From Leucoraja erinacea (Eukaryota): 64,000 nucleotides of DNA. Below the pieces are notes generated by a model that saw only the letters and a list, made by a program, of their open reading frames with translations, ran no database searches and was not told where the DNA came from. Below, piece by piece: positions 1,283-63,175 of this stretch (within the stretch, counting starts at the first letter, position 1; each line of letters begins with the position of its first letter). The stretch lies in the NCBI RefSeq assembly GCF_028641065.1, contig NC_073385.1, forward strand, positions 33,294,001-33,358,000, read 5' to 3'. Position numbers and translations under genes: made by a program.

Positions 1283-2125
1283 TTCAAGATTCAAGAGATT
1301 CGAGAGACATTTATTGTCACATGCACCAATTGTTACAGTGAAATTTGTGGACACCATAAAGCCATACGAATAAAAAATGAACACAGCACACGATAGACTT
1401 TAACATAAGCATACCCACATAGCGGAATCAAAGTTTCCCACTGTGAGGGTAGGCACCAAAGTTCAGTCATTGTTTGTTGTTCATCCGTGGTCGGGGCTTC
1501 CCAAGCCCCACCGCATGAGCGGCCCAAAGTTCAGGCCCTCTCGCCGGGATGATGGAACTCCGATGTCGGAACAGAAGAACATTCTCAGCAGCTTGGACTT
1601 CCGAATCTGCCACTTCTTACCAGAGACCGCGGCTCCCGAAGTCCACAGGTTGAGCTGGGTGGAGATTCACACTGGCGGCCCTCAGCAAAGGGATCCCAGT
1701 ACTCCACGATGTTTAAGTCAGCGCCGCCTGCGGCTGAGCTCCACAAACCACAGCTCCGTGATGTTGAAGCAGCAGGCCCAACACTCCGGAGTTTCAAGCG
1801 GCGATCCCCGGTCAGGCATCGCCCACTCCGTATGAATCCAGTGCTGCGCCGCTGCTGAAGCTCGGGTCTGGTCTCCAGCAGGAAAGGCCACACCAATCCA
1901 GTTGGTAGGCTGCGAGGGAGGGGCAAGGACGCGACTCGGAGAATAGTCGCATACTCGCCAGGAAGTGACTGAGAAACTGTTTCCCCCTTACTCTATCCAC
2001 CTCCCCCACATAAAAATACTAAACAAAACTCCAAAACATACTTTTTAAACAGACTAAAAATTAAAAAAAAGATGGAAAAACAGACAGACTGTAGGCAGAG
2101 GCTGCCATCATGCGGCGCCCCTAGT
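1283..2125 (-). mobile_element. GC-rich non-autonomous retroelement (family A) with Rex1/Babar-type tail
   Basis: Body similar to 17590-18215, 21836-22700 and 40512-40815. On the minus strand it ends ttcactgtaacaattggtgcatgtgacaataaa...(tcttgaa)n. Confidence 0.75.
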
Positions 2126-2976
2126 GTCACAAAGGAGATCATTACTCCAAAAGTCAAGAACACGAATAACTCTTTACTGAAAAAGGGTTGGAAAGCTAAT
2201 GACCTTAGCAGTGTGCCTGGTCGTAATCAAAAAATCTATTGGAGAGCAACAAAGGCTCCAAAGTTTAAGTAACCTGATTGTTAATTTTCCATCTGCAGAG
2301 TAACCAGTCAATCAACCTCAGAAAGGCAATCCAGTTTCACTGATGAAATCTGAGATAGTTTCAGCTGATCAGATACAGGGAAACGAGGAAAGGGACAGCT
2401 AAAGGTAGATAAATATCAAATGAATGAAAATGAAAATGAAACATGAATTTACTCGAGTAAACATGCACAAAGCTTTTAATTTGTTTTAAGATATGAAAGA
2501 ACACACATTCCACTGGAGAAGACAGCTTCACCGCCCCACAATACAATCACAATGGAAGGAATGCTGAGCTTGTTCAAAGGTTGTTGAAGGACAACATTTT
2601 AGCACCAGCCTTCTCCTTGGTCACTCGTTCTGGTCGATAGTAAGCGAACCACAGTAAGCGAACCACTACCATTTTTGTCGTTGCTTCCTGACCACTGACA
2701 ACCCTCTCTTTCCCGCACCTTAAACCTTCTGCCAACTACTTGGTTTAATTTCACCTGCACACTTCCATGGGCACTAAAATTCAAAGTTATCCAGCTTGCC
2801 AAATCTATATTACTAAATCTCTGATCTTGACCGCTTTTGGCCTACTGCGATTTCCGACAGAACGCCGCCACTTACGGCCGTCATTTTTGGCCACCTCGCC
2901 CAGAGCCCCCCTCTGCCTTACGGGTGCGGAGGGTTTTTCCCATCGATGACAAATCAGAGATATGTTTATGTTTTTT

Positions 2977-3795
2977 AAAAAATTCACCATTCTCTCTGCT
3001 GCCCCTGCTGGAGGGAGGGGGAGGGACTATAAAACCAGGAAGTGGTGTGCCTCACTCATTCTCTGCAATATGGATGAAGTCAAGGGTTACGTCTCTCTGA
3101 GCTCTGAATAACACTGAACAAATGTCTACACAACTGTGAGTACCCTTAATGTGGTTTGTAAATGAAAATATGGTTTGTTTGAAGTAATAAGGCACTGCCT
3201 GCAAATGGTTGTTTGGATGCTTTGGCTTGAAGTTGAAAGGCAATACTTACTGCAAATGGTGGCATGAAGTTGAAAGGCACTACTTACTACAAATGGTGGC
3301 TTGGGTGCTTTGGCTTGAAGTTGAAATGCAGTATTTACTGCAAATGGTGGCTTGGGAGCTTTGGTTTAAAGTTCAAAATACACTACTTACTGCAAATGGT
3401 GGATTGGGAGCATTGGCTTGAAGTTTTAAAAAAAATCACCGTTCTCTCTGCTGCACCTGCTGGAGGGAGGGGGAGGGACTATAAAACCAGGAAGTGGTGT
3501 GCCTCACTCACTCTCTGCAATATGGATGAAGCCAAGGGTCACATCTCTCTGAACTCTGAATAACACTGAACAAATGTCTACACAACTGTGAGTATCCTTA
3601 ATGTGGTTTGAAAATGAAAATATGGTTTGTTTGAAGTAATAAGGCACTGCCTGCAAATGGTTGTTTGGATGCTTTGGCTTGAAGTTGAAAGGCAATACTT
3701 ACTGCAAATGGTGGCATTAAGTTGAAAGGCACTACTTACTGCAAATGGTGTCTTGGGTGCTTTGACTTGAAGTTGAAAGGCACTACTGCAAATGT
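2977..3795 (+). repeat. Tandem duplication (452-bp offset) containing a ~51-bp minisatellite, inside the Helitron
   Basis: The segment starting at 2977 recurs at about 3430. Repeat unit approximates ggcactacttactgcaaatggtggcttgggtgctttggcttgaagttgaaa. Confidence 0.9.
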
Positions 3796-4164
3796 ACTTA
3801 CTTCCTGTTTGCACTGTATATTGATTTTAGATAAAACATTACACTTACGGCTGTGATTTTTGGCCATCTTACTCGGTCCCCCCTCCGCTGAGCAGGTGCA
3901 GAGAATTCTGCCCATCAATGAAAAATAAGTGTTATTAGTGTTTAAAAAATGTTGAGAATCTCTCTCCTGTCAATCACGCCCTGAAAGCCACATCTTTTCC
4001 GGTGGGAGGGGGAGGGGTTATAAAACCCGGAAGTGTGGGTGTGGCTCAGTCTCTGCATGATGGGGGAGTGAGAGGTCATGACACTGAGCTGTGAATCAAC
4101 GGAACACAATGAATGTCTACTGAACTGTGAGTTTGGTGTTTTGTGTGGTTTTATGGTGGTTTCA

Positions 4165-4565
4165 CCCTGCATGAAATGGTATGAAGCTGCATTTGAATTT
4201 GGTGGCCTTGGACCATGCTTGAAGTGGAATAAAACTGCACTGAATTTGGTGGCCTTGCACCCTGCTGAAAGTGGTATGAAACTGCACTTGAATTTGGTGG
4301 CCTTGCATCCCTGCTTGAAGTGGTTGGAAACTGCACTTGAATTCGGTGGCCTTGCACCCTGCTTGAAGTGGTTGGAAACTGCACTTGAATTCGGTGGCCT
4401 TGCACCCTGCTCATAGTGGTAAGAAACTGCACTTGAATTTGGTGGTCTTGAACCCTGCTTGAAATGGTAGGAACATGGATTTGAATTTGGTGGACTTGCA
4501 TCCTGCTTGAAATGGTAGGACCATGGATTTGAATTTGGTGGACTTGCACCCTGCTTGAAATGGAA
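4165..4565 (+). repeat. 48-bp minisatellite (~8 copies) inside the Helitron
   Basis: Unit gaaactgcacttgaattcggtggccttgcaccctgcttgaagtggttg, e.g. starting at 4327 and 4375; explains the 16-aa periodic ORFs. Confidence 0.92.
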
Positions 4566-5114
4566 TTTCAAGGAATAGTCATGAGTCAACTGCCAGCCCA
4601 CCAGCCGTGAGTGAGCTGCCAGCAGATCAGGCTTGAGGGACTGAGCTGCCACCCCAAGAACTCATACCAGCACTCCAGAAAGGCCCCCCCCCCACTGGCC
4701 ACCAATATTGGAATTGGTGGAGAGGTGGAATATTGCGTCGGGGGACCAACCCTCCCATGTGAACATGGGACCCAACGGGTCCCACTTAGTCTAGTACTTC
4801 ATAAAATTCATTGTTTTCAATCTCTATCCTCATGAACACCTGCCGAACCCTCTCCTTGCCCAAAGTGCACAATGTACTGAATTTTAAATCCACATAGGGT
4901 ACCTGTGTCAACTGGGTATGTATTAATTTTGCACTAGTATTGTGGCTATTGTTTTTCTTTATTTTATAGGATCTATGACGATTAAATACTCTTGATTCTG
5001 GTAACTTTTCTCATTTCACTGCATGTTGTAGTTTAATTTGGAGATGCAGCATGGAAACGGGACATTTGTCCCACATAGTCCATGCTGACCTTCATGAAAC
5101 CTGAAAACAAAATA

Positions 5115-17589: not shown

Positions 17590-18215
17590 CTCTGAGCTGC
17601 TTCTTCACCCCCTCCTCGTGGCCTACCATCGAGAATGGAGTGGTGTTTCCTTCGTGACCGGCCGGGACTACAGCTTTGGCGGCGGCACAGCACGGGGACA
17701 CCAACACGGAGTGGGTGATGCCTTACCGGGTCGCCGTGCGGTAAGCTCCGGAGTGCTGTGACCGCTGACTCCGCCTCGAGGAGCTGCGGCTGCGGGCGTC
17801 CAGCCGTGGGAGGCGCTGGATTTAAAACACCGCGGAGCCTGGGATCCGAGATCGCCAACCCGCGCGGCCTGAGGACTTCGGGTGCCGTGGTCTCCAGGGA
17901 GGGAGTGGCCGCACCAGACATTCCAAGCCATTGAGAATGTTCACCCGACACAGGAGTTCCAGCTTTTCCGGCAAGAGGGACTGAAGCATCGGGCTGCCAT
18001 AGCGGCGACTGCGGAGGCCACAATAGGCCCGACTATGGGTGAACAGGGGATGGGACTGGACTTTGCTGCCTTCCCCCACAGTGGGAACCATTGTGGGGGG
18101 GATGTTTTTATGTTTATTGTTAAATTCTTTAATGTTGTGTCTTATTTTATTTGTGCGCTGCAATGGCAAGTCCAATCGGTGTATGTGATAATTAATGTCC
18201 TTTGTATCCTTTGTA
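17590..18215 (+). mobile_element. GC-rich non-autonomous retroelement (family A), 5'-truncated, Rex-type tail
   Basis: Body aligns with the reverse complement of about 22000-22530 (e.g. gatgccttacc.ggtcgccgtgcggtaagctccggag.gctg). Tail tcggtgtatgtgataattaatgtcctttgtatcctttgt. Confidence 0.75.
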
Positions 18216-21835: not shown

Positions 21836-22700
21836 AAGTAACCAAGTAAGTAAGTTTTATTTATATAGCACGTTTTAAGTCAACTCGCATTGACATCAAA
21901 GTGCTTTACTTAAATTAAATAATAAGTTTCCATACAAACCATAGAAAAATGTTAAAAAAATAAAGAAGATGGACACAACACATTAGAGTTCAACACAAAT
22001 GTCCCCCCCCCCCCCCCCACAGCAGAATCAAAAATTTCCACTGTGCGGAAAGGCACCAGAAAGTTAAGTCCTCTTCCTCTGTGAAACTCCCGAGGTCGGG
22101 GCCCATTTATGGCCTTTCAGCCAGTCCGATAATTTTCAGGGCCCTCTGGCCGTGAAGATGGAACTCTGGCGTCGGGTGAAACATTCCTCAGCAGCTTTGA
22201 AAGTCTGGAGTGGTTGCCTCCTCCCCAGAGACCGGGCACTCGTAGTCCTTGGGCCTCGCCGGTTGGAGCTCCGACCCCGGCGAACTCGATCCCTGGCTCC
22301 GCGGCGCTCCAAATCCAGCGCCGCCCGCAGCCACATGTTGTTGGGAGTCAGCAGCCACAGCGCTCCGGAGCTTACCGCACGGCGACCTGGTAAGGCATCG
22401 CCCGCTCCGTGTTGGTATCCTAGCGCTGTGCCACCGCCGCCGAAGCTGTAGTTCTGGCCGGTCCCGACAGGAAATGCCGCTCCATTCTCGCTGGTAGGCC
22501 ACGAGGACGGGGCGAAGAAGCAGCTCGGAGGGATGCTGCCTCTCCGATCAGGTAGGGGACTAAAAAATAATGTTTCCCCTTTCCCCACCTCCAACCACCA
22601 CATAAAAGACCTCCATTAACATTTTGGACAGGACTTAAAATTTAAAAAAAAAGGTGAAGAGATGGACTGCGGGCAGGCTGCCATACACAGACGGTGCCTA
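21836..22700 (-). mobile_element. GC-rich non-autonomous retroelement (family A) with L2-type tail
   Basis: Same body as 1283-2125 and 17590-18215, but the minus-strand end is gtaaagcactttg...gtgctatataaataaaa(ctta)n, like the L2 tail at 35258-35330. Confidence 0.8.
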
Positions 22701-24199
22701 CTCCTGCACATCCGCCATCACGTAAAAATGTCATTGTCCCATTGTCGGTAAATATGACAATTATGACATTTTGGACTATATATATGGCAGTAAACTTTCT
22801 TGAATACTCACATGGCTTAGCGCGGCCTCTCCATTTTGAGGCTTCCACAGTCAGCGGCACTTCCACAATCAGCGTGACCTCTGCACTTACCGGAATTTAC
22901 GCAATCAGCGCGAACTGTCCACTAAGCGGAAGTCACGAAATGAGCGGGAATTTTGAACCAAACACAGTCGGACCTAATAAAGCATTTATTCCTTCCAAAC
23001 ACAGTCGGGCCTAATAAAGCATAGCAGTTTCAAGCACAGGCAGGGGGATTGGGGGCAGGACAATACAACCCTGGATGCCTTTTCACTGTAGCTCTGCACA
23101 TGTAATAATAAAGAACCATTGAACCGTTGAACCAGATGAGGCCTGGCATCATTCACATGCATTCAGAGCTTGAAAATACCACTGCAGCACAGCTCATTTC
23201 TTTGCGGTTGACTTGAGCAGCATTTGCAAAGCAGTTCAGATGCCAGTGACCATCTTCTGCAAGCTGTCGCAGAATGCTTTTTCTCTGCATTACCCATTTT
23301 GTTGAGTCTCCCTTATGCATCACCTTTGGAAGGCCAGCTGCTCAGAAAATAGTCTATAATAATTACAAATGCCACCAGTTCTCTAGATACCTCAACAAGG
23401 CTATGGCCTTCATACCTCATTGGGAAATACTGCCCCTCTCCAATCTCACAGCTGCTTAAGTAACAACTTCAACAATCATCATGTATTTAAAGGGGGAAAG
23501 TGTAAACTACGCAGCCCTTCTACTGAAGAAGTAATATTAATTTGTTTGCTGATACAAAAAAGTAACTTCTCACCGGGCAGCAATCAAGGGGAATGATAAA
23601 ATGAAAAATATGAAGGTAAAAGCAATGATACATTAAAATAAATCAAATAGTTGCAGCAGCAACTAATTAAGCCTGATCTAAATTGTCAGCAATCTGTGCC
23701 AGCAATTAGCTTGAATATAAAAATAAAATTAAACAGTACATTACTTTCAGCTCCTCATTGCTCTCCACACAGAACTTTGCCACATCTCATTTGTTCTATT
23801 TTACTCCACCAATTATTCCGGTTGTCCTTTTACCCTTTAATTTCAGATTGGGTATTTTATCAGACCCTGATTTATTTCCATTTTTGCTTCATCTGGGCAT
23901 GGTTTCATAGCTCCATTTCTTGCATTTTTCTGATTGATTTTGTTTACTTTGTTTTCCTCGTGGACCTGATAAATATTTTATTTTGTTCTATGCAAGTTGA
24001 AAAATTTCCAAAAAAGCAGATAGTCCAGTTGATGCATAATTAAGATTTATCTGCAAGATGTTTAGCTTGGTAAATTGTGTTCACTGATACATATTTATAA
24101 ATACTTCCAGCATGTAAAACTCTGATAGATGGTAGTTGAAAGGCCACATAAAACATTATTGGTGCCAAAGCCTATATAAAATAAAACATATTAGTTTGT

Positions 24200-27749: not shown

Positions 27750-27955
27750 CATAGGTAGACAAAAATGCTGGAGAAACTTAGCGGGTGAGGCAGCATCTAT
27801 GGCGAGAAGGAATAGCTGACGTTTCGGGTCGAGACCCGTCTTCAGTCTGAAGAAATGTCACATATTTCTTCTCCCCATTAATGCTGTCTCACCCGCTGAG
27901 TTTCACCAGCATTTTCATCCATCTTCAATTTTTCCAGCATCTGCAATTCTTTCAT
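27750..27955. mobile_element. Palindromic Penelope-derived element
   Basis: Inverted arms aaaatgctggagaaacttagcgggtgaggcagcat and atgctgtctcacccgctgagtttcaccagcatttt, centred on tcttcagtctgaaga. Confidence 0.85.
27818..27845 (-). ncRNA. Candidate minimal type I hammerhead ribozyme core
   Basis: Minus strand: CTGAAGA-C-GGGTCTCGACCC-GAAA-C-GTC, i.e. CUGANGA, palindromic stem II, GAAA, loopless ACGU stem III, GUC triplet. Stem I is weak. Confidence 0.6.
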
Positions 27956-29915: not shown

Positions 29916-30053
29916 AAAGATAGACACAACATGCTGGAGTAACTCAGCGAGACTGGCAGCAACTCTGGTGTCTCGACCCAAAACCTCACCCATTCCTTCC
30001 CTCCATAGATGCTGCCTGTCCCGATGAGTTACTCCAGCTTTTTGTGTCTATCT
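29916..30053. mobile_element. Palindromic Penelope-derived element with central deletion
   Basis: agatagacaca...gctggagtaactca and tgagttactccagc...tgtgtctatct. Confidence 0.82.
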
Positions 30054-35257: not shown

Positions 35258-35573
35258 AGTCAAGTCAAGTTACTTTTATTTCTATAGCACATTTAAAAAC
35301 AACTCTCGTTGACCAAAGTGCTTTACATTGGTGGAGGTACTAACGTTATACAACATTGGTTCATAGATTAAGTACATACATATAGCCCTCACTCAGAGGA
35401 TGTCAAGAAAGGCTTGAGAATAAAGATGAGTTTTAAGTCTTGACTTAAAAGAGTCGATGGAAGGGGCAGTTCTGATGGGAAGAGGGATGCTGCTCCACAG
35501 TCTAGGAGCTGCAACCGCAAAGGCGCAGTCGCCTCTGAGCTTATGCCTAGACTGCGAGATGTTCAGTAACCCC
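35258..35573 (-). mobile_element. L2-clade LINE 3' end
   Basis: RGDCAFAVAAPRLWSSIP...FKSRLKTHLY; tail gtaaagcactttgg...tgctatagaaataaaa; TSD AACATCA at 35251-35257 and 35574-35580. Confidence 0.9.
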
Positions 35574-36054
35574 AACATCACCCATTCCTTCTCTCCAGAG
35601 ATGCTGCCTGTCCCGCTGAGTTACTTCAGCATTTTGTGTCTATCTTCGGTTTCAACCAGCAACTTCCCTTCAGCCATCAGGTTATTAAACACGACAACAA
35701 ATAAGCTCTGAACTGCAACAGACTATTATTATTATTATTGTACTATAATTGTTTGTTTTATGAGTATGTTTATATGTGTGTGTTTATATACACACTGAAC
35801 TTTTTTTCCTTTTGTTTATGTACTATGTTTACATATTCTGTTGTGCTGCAGCAAGTAAGAATTTCATTGTTCTCTCTGGGGCATTTGACAATAAAACACT
35901 CTTGACTCTTCCTACACATCCCCCAATGCTTTATCTGCGACAGCTATGACTGCATCGGTGCTCCCTGCTGGACCTGAGCAGAACTTGTTGCGTTCATTAG
36001 CATCATCACAAACCTCCACTCTGCCCACAAGTTCACCACTAACTTTCACCCTTC

Positions 36055-40511: not shown

Positions 40512-40815
40512 AATTCAAGTTCAAGTTCAAGTTACCTTTATTGTCACATGCACCAATTGGTACAGTGAGATTTGAGTTACCATAAGGCCGCACCAATCCA
40601 GATGGTAGGGGGGCCAAAGATGCGACTCGGAGAAAAGATGTATTCTCGACAAAGATGTAACTGGGAAATGGTTTCCCCTCTCCTAATCATCCCCCCCCCT
40701 CCCCCATGCCCCACATAAAAAGTACTAAAAAAACTTTTAAAACGTACTTTTTGACACACTAAAAATAATAAAAAGGGTGAAATGACAGACAAACTGCTGG
40801 CGAAGGTGGCGCTGA
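40512..40815 (-). mobile_element. Internally deleted family A element (Rex-type tail)
   Basis: Tail tttattgtcacatgcaccaattggtacagtgaga joined directly to aggccgcaccaatccag, which corresponds to about 1885. Confidence 0.75.
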
Positions 40816-46729: not shown

Positions 46730-47260
46730 CTGACCATCGATTTAACCATTCACACTAGTTCTATGTCATCAAATGTTCTCACTCCTACACACACTAGAAG
46801 CCATTACAGTAAAGTAAGTAAAGTAACTAGTAAAGTCAATTTTATTTATATAGCACGTTTAAATCAACTCGCGTTGAAACCAAAGTGCTTTACATAAAAT
46901 AAATAATAAACTTTCCGTACATCCATAGATAAATAAAAAATAAGAAAAATGACACAACACATTAAAGAATTCAGCATGAACGTCCCCCCACAGCAGAATC
47001 AAAATTTTCCACTGTGGGGGAAGGCACCAAAAAGTTCAGTCCTCTTCCTCTGTGATCACCCATGGTCGGGGCCTATTTATATACAGAGGTCAATTAATCT
47101 ACAAACAACTTATTTGGGACATAGAAAGGAACTGAAGCACCCGGAGAGAACCCGCTCATGGAGAATGTGCAAACTCCACACAGACAGAATCCAAGGTCGG
47201 GATCGAACCCAGGTCTCTGGTGCTGTGTGGCAGTAGCCCTACCAGCCGCACCACTGTGTT
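46730..47260 (-). mobile_element. tRNA-derived SINE interrupted by 46810-47081
   Basis: B box ggatcgaaccc at about 47200; SINE tail at 46730-46809. Confidence 0.8.
46810..47081 (-). mobile_element. 5'-truncated family A element with L2-type tail
   Basis: Matches 21840-22110; TSD TACAG at 46805-46809 and 47082-47086. Confidence 0.85.
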
Positions 47261-50599: not shown

Positions 50600-50800
50600 T
50601 CAACACAGCGTGCTGGAGGAACTCAACAGGTCAGGCAGCATCTTTGGATGGAATAAACAGACTGTGTTTTTAATTAAGACTCTTATTCAGACCCAATCCA
50701 AAATATCTCCTGCCCATTCCCTCCAAAGATGCTGTCTGACCAGTTGAGTTCCTCGAGCATTTTGTGTTTTGCTCTAGATTCCAGCATTCACAGTTCTCTG
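50600..50800. mobile_element. Degenerate palindromic Penelope-derived element
   Basis: tgctggaggaactcaac.ggtcaggcagcatctttgg and ccaaagatgctgtctgacc.gttgagttcctcgagca. Confidence 0.72.
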
Positions 50801-62999: not shown

Positions 63000-63175
63000 A
63001 AGAAAACACAGAGTGGCAGAATAATATGGCAGGTCAGGCAGCATCTTTGGAGAACATGGATCGGTGATGTTTTGGGTCAAGTCTGAAGAATGGTCCCGAC
63101 GACAAACATCACCTCTCCATATTGTCCAGTGATGCTGCCTGACTGACTGAGTCGCTCCACTATGTTGTGTTTCTG
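63000..63175. mobile_element. Palindromic Penelope-derived element
   Basis: Arms gtcaggcagcatc and gatgctgcctgac around gtctgaagaatggtcccgacgacaaacatc. Confidence 0.72.

Follow-up and report, generated by a model that had tools for sequence, protein, structure and literature searches.

Can one retroposon body be carried through a genome by the reverse transcriptases (RTs) of two different LINE clades? The question is raised by a 64-kb stretch of Leucoraja erinacea DNA (hereafter, the window), in which a preliminary description had listed five copies of a GC-rich element, three with a Rex-type and two with an L2-type 3′ tail. Comparison of the window with itself and alignment of the five copies found all of them at the reported places and homologous to one another, with small boundary corrections (ends at 2126, 22719, and 47078).

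Two of the copies are full length. The copy at 1283..2126 (minus strand) belongs to a Rex-tailed subfamily, B, and is 91% identical to the B majority sequence over 830 nt; among 40 scored genome matches, 39 are further places with 83 to 88% identity to it. Its LINE-like 5′ leader (2100..2126, minus strand; GGCGCC...ATGGCAGCC) is similar to a motif at the start of full-length Rex and L2 elements, its core is a conserved hairpin (1413..1455, minus strand; fold z −2.0, with covariation in the family), and its Rex-type tail (1283..1348, minus strand) consists of a short stem-loop, TGACAATAAA, and a microsatellite, the layout in which RT-coding LINEs with PF09004 also end. The copy at 21836..22719 (minus strand) represents the L2-tailed subfamily A and is 92% identical to its majority sequence. 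By sequence comparison, its leader (22676..22719, minus strand) opens with (AA)GATGGCGG like the LINEs; it has the same conserved core hairpin (22013..22055, minus strand; fold z −2.2, with family covariation) and ends in an L2-type tail made of a stem-loop and a TTAC microsatellite (21836..21910, minus strand; fold z −2.4).

The remaining three copies are incomplete. The one at 17590..18215 (plus strand) is a leaderless, 5′-truncated member of the Rex-tailed subfamily C_Rex (88% identical to its majority); its sequence begins at profile column 185 and has the middle common to C_Rex and the L2-tailed subfamily C_L2. A 5′-truncated C_L2 copy (46810..47078, minus strand; 93% identical to the C_L2 majority) lies within another repeat, and at 40512..40815 (minus strand; 72% identical to B) an internal deletion has fused the 5′ block to a Rex-type tail. 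The leader, body, and core described as shared by the copies are indeed homologous parts, but the 40512 copy has lost its core hairpin through the deletion. Tail calls confirmed the Rex-type ends of the 1283, 17590, and 40512 copies. The ends of the 21836 and 46810 copies are L2-type as proposed, but they are just 81% and 86% identical to the tail with which they had been said to match, that of the L2 at 35258. This tail reference, outside the element, is a 5′-truncated L2-type LINE (35258..35575, minus strand) with an RT-frame C terminus, 89% identical to its family, upstream of its tail; its family is found at 91 to 94% identity, with RVT_1 in longer relatives. The 21836 tail is 84 to 86% identical to the tail of a tRNA-type SINE. 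Likewise, the 5′ truncation of the 46810 copy holds, but its target site duplication (TSD) is an exact 5-nt flanking repeat with three extra bases on the 5′ side, which is weak alone. Elsewhere in the window, 2869-4566 contains local tandem duplications (e.g., 2972-3346 versus 3424-3794 at 94%, and a ∼93-nt unit at 4154-4566).

Three genome searches were performed with window copies, and 30 loci were fetched from each. The 21836 query yielded L2 tails in all 30 loci. With the tail-less 1283 body, a Rex tail was called in 30/30 loci by a loose rule, two of which were tail-less under a stricter rule. The tail-less body of the Rex-tailed 17590 copy retrieved 19 Rex-tailed loci, 8 L2-tailed loci, and 3 without a tail. 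Because this body-only query from a Rex-tailed source returned both tail classes, the pattern of one body with two tails is far beyond chance. The majority sequences of A and C_L2 (L2-tailed) and of B and C_Rex (Rex-tailed) can be aligned from leader to tail. Thus the two outcomes that the preliminary description had named as speaking against it, nonhomologous bodies and nonrecurrent junctions, were not what we found: the bodies are homologous end to end, and the segment pattern was discordant with the subfamily in 0 of 164 copies.

The Rex-type tails fall into at least six variants and have a layout in common with RT-linked tails. Similarity to the 35258 L2 family is confined to about the last 68 nt, and the element tails are 74 to 86% identical to four RT-linked L2 tail types. 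The A tail is 88 to 90% identical to that of a short SINE with A/B-box-like motifs versus 83% to the L2 at 35258. An exact Rex partner was sought with the B tail, for which all 30 matches were the element itself, and among the RT-linked tails compared, no exact source LINE was found for either tail class. The best 150 L2 protein matches were all 89 to 100% identical to the query and included no young, near-identical set matching subfamily Y (see below). The clade names L2 and Rex1/Babar are our working assignments, taken from tail motifs, an L2-type C terminus, and PF09004 beside RVT_1 rather than from an RT tree. Rex-type LINEs of several families, including full-length elements with open frames of ∼1,000 aa, were seen at L201 and L375-L387, and PF09004 gave 57,345 first-look candidates. 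A short SINE with A/B-box-like motifs by eye and an L2 tail was seen at L292:5360-5590 and L099. An abundant short tail repeat occurs in head-to-head inverted pairs at window positions 27762-27915, 29918-30053, 50602-50768, and 63033-63143.

A body profile was run over 864 kb, comprising the window, 80 kb adjoining it, and 720 kb at spaced positions. Of the 35 chained matches obtained, four are fragments belonging to two inverted arrays, so that 31 insertions remain; extrapolation to the 2.19-Gb genome gives ∼79,000 insertions (Poisson 53,000 to 112,000), and the family is estimated to make up 2 to 3% of the genome. The genome also has HE1/HER1-like repeats, which point to a cartilaginous fish, probably a skate or ray. 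Among the 30 matches outside the window, 13 have a Rex-type tail, 2 have no called tail, and 15 stop short of the core; no L2-tailed copy was found in these 800 kb. Given 13 Rex-type tails versus none of L2 type, L2 tails are a minority, and the window is enriched in L2-tailed copies. Mean divergence from the majority is 4.3% for A (n = 30), 5.8% for C_L2 (n = 12), 6.6% for C_Rex (n = 14), and 8.7% for B (n = 39), values that serve as rough ages only, since the copy sets were selected by similarity. Full-length copies of the main subfamilies measure ∼810 to 900 nt, and those of some subfamilies ∼600 to 740 nt. The five window copies are members of one large superfamily of noncoding 0.7- to 0.9-kb retroposons. 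These open with a LINE-like 5′ leader and a T-run, continue through a CpG-rich body and a conserved 12-bp hairpin, end in a LINE-type tail, and have no tRNA head. Pieces of the subfamily A body were also seen in inverted arrays (L251:9221-9992, L282:885-1433, and L154), possibly a DNA element that captured the body; the L282 array is flanked by a sequence that resembles a MITE end.

We next turn to the direction of the switch. A midpoint-rooted tree, with no outgroup, was built from 57 of the 108 near-full-length copies, namely 8 of the 29 A copies, 8 of the 38 B copies, and all 41 others. All 21 L2-tailed rows lie on one side of a branch with a support of 99; thus, the body phylogeny called for in the preliminary description gathers the L2-tailed copies in a single clade among Rex-tailed ones. 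Under the midpoint root, C_Rex is the sister group of this clade, and B and several deeper-branching Rex-tailed groups lie outside both. Since the L2-tailed clade is nested among Rex-tailed subfamilies, the tree as rooted implies that an L2 tail was captured by a Rex-tailed lineage and that the L2 tail would be the derived state.

Comparison of C_L2 with C_Rex suggests that more than the tail was exchanged. The two are 95 to 100% identical in profile columns 121-600 but 53 to 79% identical in columns 1-120 and 601-720, with p-distances of 0.21, 0.01, and 0.25 for the 5′, middle, and 3′ segments. The corresponding distances are 0.12, 0.07, and 0.05 between C_L2 and A; 0.13, 0.15, and 0.22 between C_L2 and Y; and 0.18 to 0.20, 0.22, and 0.12 to 0.14 between C_Rex and another Rex-tailed group. 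As the central 480 nt are 99% alike and both ends 21 to 25% different, the end modules appear to have been swapped whole; the 5′ module spans ∼120 nt and the 3′ module ∼290 nt, more than the 60- to 70-nt tail. Segment trees were built from 43 selected rows, of which a fill filter retained 34, 37, and 32, and they conflict with one another: the middle tree mixes C_L2 with C_Rex (99/98), whereas in the 3′ tree C_Rex clusters with another Rex-tailed group (100/95) and the L2-tailed rows stay together (96/94). AU tests on 23 rows, with groups named after the trees were seen, rejected three cross-groupings (P = 0.015, 0.013, and 2e-5), and two were not significant (P = 0.26 and 0.29). Because C_Rex is the odd one in the distances, we favor C_Rex having acquired its middle from the L2 lineage, the reverse transfer being the less probable alternative. 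The partner switch by tail exchange proposed in the preliminary description is therefore supported in substance, but the exchanged unit is larger than the tail, and the L2 tail appears as a minority, derived state of a family with a Rex-tailed ancestor.

A second L2-type tail, noticed in a flank, led to subfamily Y (L394, L396, and L400; a truncated copy at L391). All 40 scored matches of Y, among 1,778 first-look candidates, are 98 to 100% identical, and the youngest subfamily found is thus L2-tailed. Of 14 Y copies fetched, 3 are full length and 11 are 5′-truncated at varied points, as expected for target-primed reverse transcription. At L402:150-1081, a 5′-truncated Y copy is inserted within the T-run of an element from another subfamily and so has a foreign leader in front of it, a chimera that illustrates a possible route to a 5′ swap.

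A coding role for the element was rejected. Most of the indels that distinguish subfamilies have lengths not divisible by three (9/11 up to 28/31, e.g., 25/28), and ATG frames of 120 to 200 aa vary from one subfamily to another, C_Rex having none. No EN-RT reading frame lies within or continuous with the body, unlike in the partner LINEs. The element is therefore neither an autonomous Rex1/Babar or L2 LINE, having no EN-RT frame, nor an ORF1-only nonautonomous LINE of the HAL1, Ag-Sponge, or HeT-A kind, having no conserved ORF1-like frame. What is conserved is the core, a 12-bp hairpin of variable loop length located ∼110 to 140 nt before the tail end. In 19 copies of diverse subfamilies, 98% of cells are paired, two pairs have changed on both sides, and one pair covaries well, counts that favor the structure because the alignment was trimmed around the hairpin and the structure derived from it. 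Four window copies fold with z values of −2.0 to −3.6. A divergent subfamily (L013 and L182) has a perfect 23-bp hairpin just upstream of the core region. Flanking repeats of at least 7 nt were found in 6 of 69 copies, one of them inside a tandem repeat (shuffle mean 1.9, maximum 8), a slight TSD excess in which clear TSDs are rare.

Two single-cell RNA runs, read to 1 to 3%, and two contig sets were aligned to a Y copy. The main read pile maps to the opposite strand from the element, adjoining its T-runs, and 73 to 75% of the reads continue into unlike sequence. We read the pile as internal priming on host RNA together with reads from other L2-type tails, so that these reads are uninformative on the element's own transcription; their loose ends may point to another, related variant of the tail. 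The listed holders of element sequence included no RNA records.

The leader was compared with the 5′ ends of full-length Rex and L2 elements, as the preliminary description had advised; 20 to 25 nt are in common, and the rest of the body is unmatched in the LINE loci sampled. The Rex elements L371-L373 and 7/7 L2 5′ ends, all from one L2 family, begin with AAGATGGC or a sequence close to it, after which comes a GCGCC...TGGC(A/T)GC box. Since the leader resembles both clades, it does not identify the partner. A AAGATGGCGG start, which to us resembles a YY1 site, is found in 18/30 A, 3/12 C_L2, 0/14 C_Rex, and 0/39 B copies. The start of B (window 2121-2126) reads like what we take to be a CTCF motif, an idea that was dropped, as 5/39 copies have it at one mismatch and most copies are one G short; relatives of the window B copy with such a start are at L039, L042, L047, and L056. 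The L2 family at L216, L217, and L218 has a 12-nt tandem array near its 5′ end, which gave 58 first-look candidates, and an N-terminal frame layout that is Rex-like; within the endonuclease region of the near-full-length L2 at L216 lies a Rex-tailed member of the present family (3068-3981, minus strand).

These data place the copies in one superfamily with a shared body and two tails, and we consider it likely that its members are transcribed by Pol II and copied by the RT of whichever LINE their tail mimics. In the course of events that we propose, a Rex-tailed ancestor would have gained an L2-type 3′ end, taken either from an L2 or from a SINE that depends on L2, and founded C_L2, A, and Y; later template switching or recombination would have joined a C_L2 middle to Rex-lineage ends to give C_Rex, a switch back for the central body. 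The leader would act as promoter, with Pol II initiating there, the tail stem-loop would be the RT binding site, and the core hairpin may be a partner-independent RNA element that also provides homology for switching. A fuller version, which we advance tentatively as quite possible but short of probable, is that of an undescribed, headless Pol II superfamily, defined by its hairpin, that crossed in both directions between Rex1/Babar and L2 with a leader swap and whose L2 branch is still jumping.

Other explanations account for parts of these observations. The near identity of the C_L2 and C_Rex middles might have arisen without recombination between source elements, through fast-changing ends or conversion; the ends hold the promoter and RT-binding parts and may change quickly, and the AU test for the 5′ segment did not reach significance (P = 0.29). 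This is improbable, given that the ends of C_Rex have derived states in common with another Rex-tailed group (a short-loop hairpin; 100/95), that A and C_L2 are only 0.05 to 0.12 apart in all segments, and that all classified copies of C_Rex and C_L2 show the same pattern, as expected of one recombinant source. That one relaxed RT copies both tail types, the partner never having changed, is rather more improbable: both tails combine a stem-loop with a microsatellite and an exact tail partner was not found, but the tails differ in sequence and match different RT-coding families, and L2-clade recognition is described as stringent (PMC3747384).

The origin of the body invites two further alternatives. 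The element might be a bipartite internal-deletion derivative of an extinct or unsampled LINE (a SIDE), with the body as a long 5′ UTR and the tails exchanged later, which alters the origin of the body and leaves the switch standing. Its start and leader are LINE-like, the middle of the body is CpG-island-like (GC 0.67, CpG observed/expected ∼0.9), the route is one proposed by Kojima in 2018 (PMC5786205), and CR1-derived SIDEs are known (PMC6740152). We nevertheless judge it unlikely. The sampled Rex and L2 elements begin their reading frame almost at the start and have no long 5′ UTR; in 35 Rex and 5 L2 loci, body-profile matches were neighboring insertions or flanks only; and none of the 32 copies that have a 5′ end but in which neither core nor tail was called continues into an RT frame, the same-strand matches being at least 800 nt from the copy start. 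Leader and tail aside, the body is therefore not, in the LINEs sampled, an internal-deletion piece of its own LINE, an outcome that the preliminary description had set against its proposal. A Pol III SINE with an unrecognized head is very improbable. GC-rich-headed SINEs whose mode of transcription is unknown do exist (PMC4844689, PMC5786205), but the element is longer than 700 nt, and the short L2-tailed SINE of the same genome does show A/B-box-like motifs by eye. Moreover, as had been claimed from the window copies, T-runs come early, ∼60 to 90 nt from the start, without tRNA boxes: two to four T-runs of 4 to 8 nt lie within ∼90 nt of the start, ARAGORN found no tRNA gene in eight loci, Rfam gave no match at gathering level in four loci, and no B box was found in element copies. 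The early T-runs thus argue against Pol III transcription, and we retain a Pol II-type element as the probable identity.

Partner switching explains how nonautonomous retroposons outlive their LINEs, and the documented cases are Pol III SINEs. If a headless and probably Pol II-transcribed element does likewise, the module-exchange model would cover a second class of element, and Rex1/Babar would join the host clades. Pairs with 99% identical middles and different ends, together with the very young Y, make tail specificity, the promoter role of the leader, and the role of the hairpin directly testable, and the family scatters tens of thousands of CpG-rich, promoter-like sequences. Neither a description of the family nor a headless Rex1/Babar-L2 switch was found in the openly searchable literature, a scope that leaves Repbase, Dfam, subscription journals, and supplements outside, and the family may already be deposited in Repbase or Dfam.

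Among known systems, it is established that Pol III SINEs, including those of cartilaginous fish, exchange tails and modules (PMC5499810, PMC11481361). Like CORE, V, Deu, and Meta SINEs, CmiSINE/SacSINE1 of Callorhinchus, and bivalve HCD SINEs, the present element combines one body with tails of several LINE clades, and as in conserved-domain SINEs, the exchanged module exceeds the LINE-homologous tail (PMC5499810, PMC11481361). Tail identities are also comparable: 72 to 95% to LINEs over 35 to 61 nt in bivalve HCD SINEs and 74 to 86% here (PMC11481361, PMC5499810). The word "Rex" is absent from the main texts of both papers. Those SINEs are short, with tRNA, 5S, or 7SL heads and Pol III promoters, whereas the present element has a LINE-like leader, early T-runs, and a length of 0.7 to 0.9 kb. 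SINEBase defines a SINE by a head 60% identical over 60 nt to tRNA, 5S, or 7SL RNA, a length below 700 bp, and Pol III transcription (PMC3531059). ARAGORN, Rfam, and B-box checks found no such head, and the main subfamilies are too long, some shorter subfamilies straddling the limit; the dispersal is that of a SINE, being interspersed, in more than 100 copies, with a LINE-like 3′ end.

BuceSINE and ManaSINE2 resemble the element in that the 5′ part is GC-rich and of unknown origin, a Pol III head is lacking, and the tail derives from a LINE, but their bipartite tails come from one partner clade, AviRTE, with no partner switch described (PMC4844689); GC-rich-headed SINEs are known from birds (PMC4844689, PMC7245038). 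The likeness to ORF-less bipartite LINEs or SIDEs (RIME, NARTc, Bov-A, Vingi-1_EE derivatives, and Persaeus from CR1-Zenon) lies in the lack of a small-RNA head or protein and in a LINE-like 5′ start, a LINE 3′ end, and presumed Pol II transcription (PMC5786205, PMC6740152). SIDE source LINEs were RTE, Ingi, Vingi, and R2 in Kojima 2018 (PMC5786205), with CR1 added in 2019 (PMC6740152), and the literature searched held no report of a SIDE from Rex1/Babar or L2. Compared with the SIDE definition, the element has neither a conserved ORF nor a small-RNA head; at its 5′ end, it has only the 20- to 25-nt leader motif in common with both Rex and L2, the rest matching 0 of 40 long LINE loci, and its tails are clade-typical, the exact source family not having been found. 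SIDEs are the two ends of one known LINE, whereas the present element has ∼700 nt unmatched in the sampled LINEs and tails of two clades. It thus works like a tail-swapping SINE and is built like a nonautonomous LINE with an unexplained middle.
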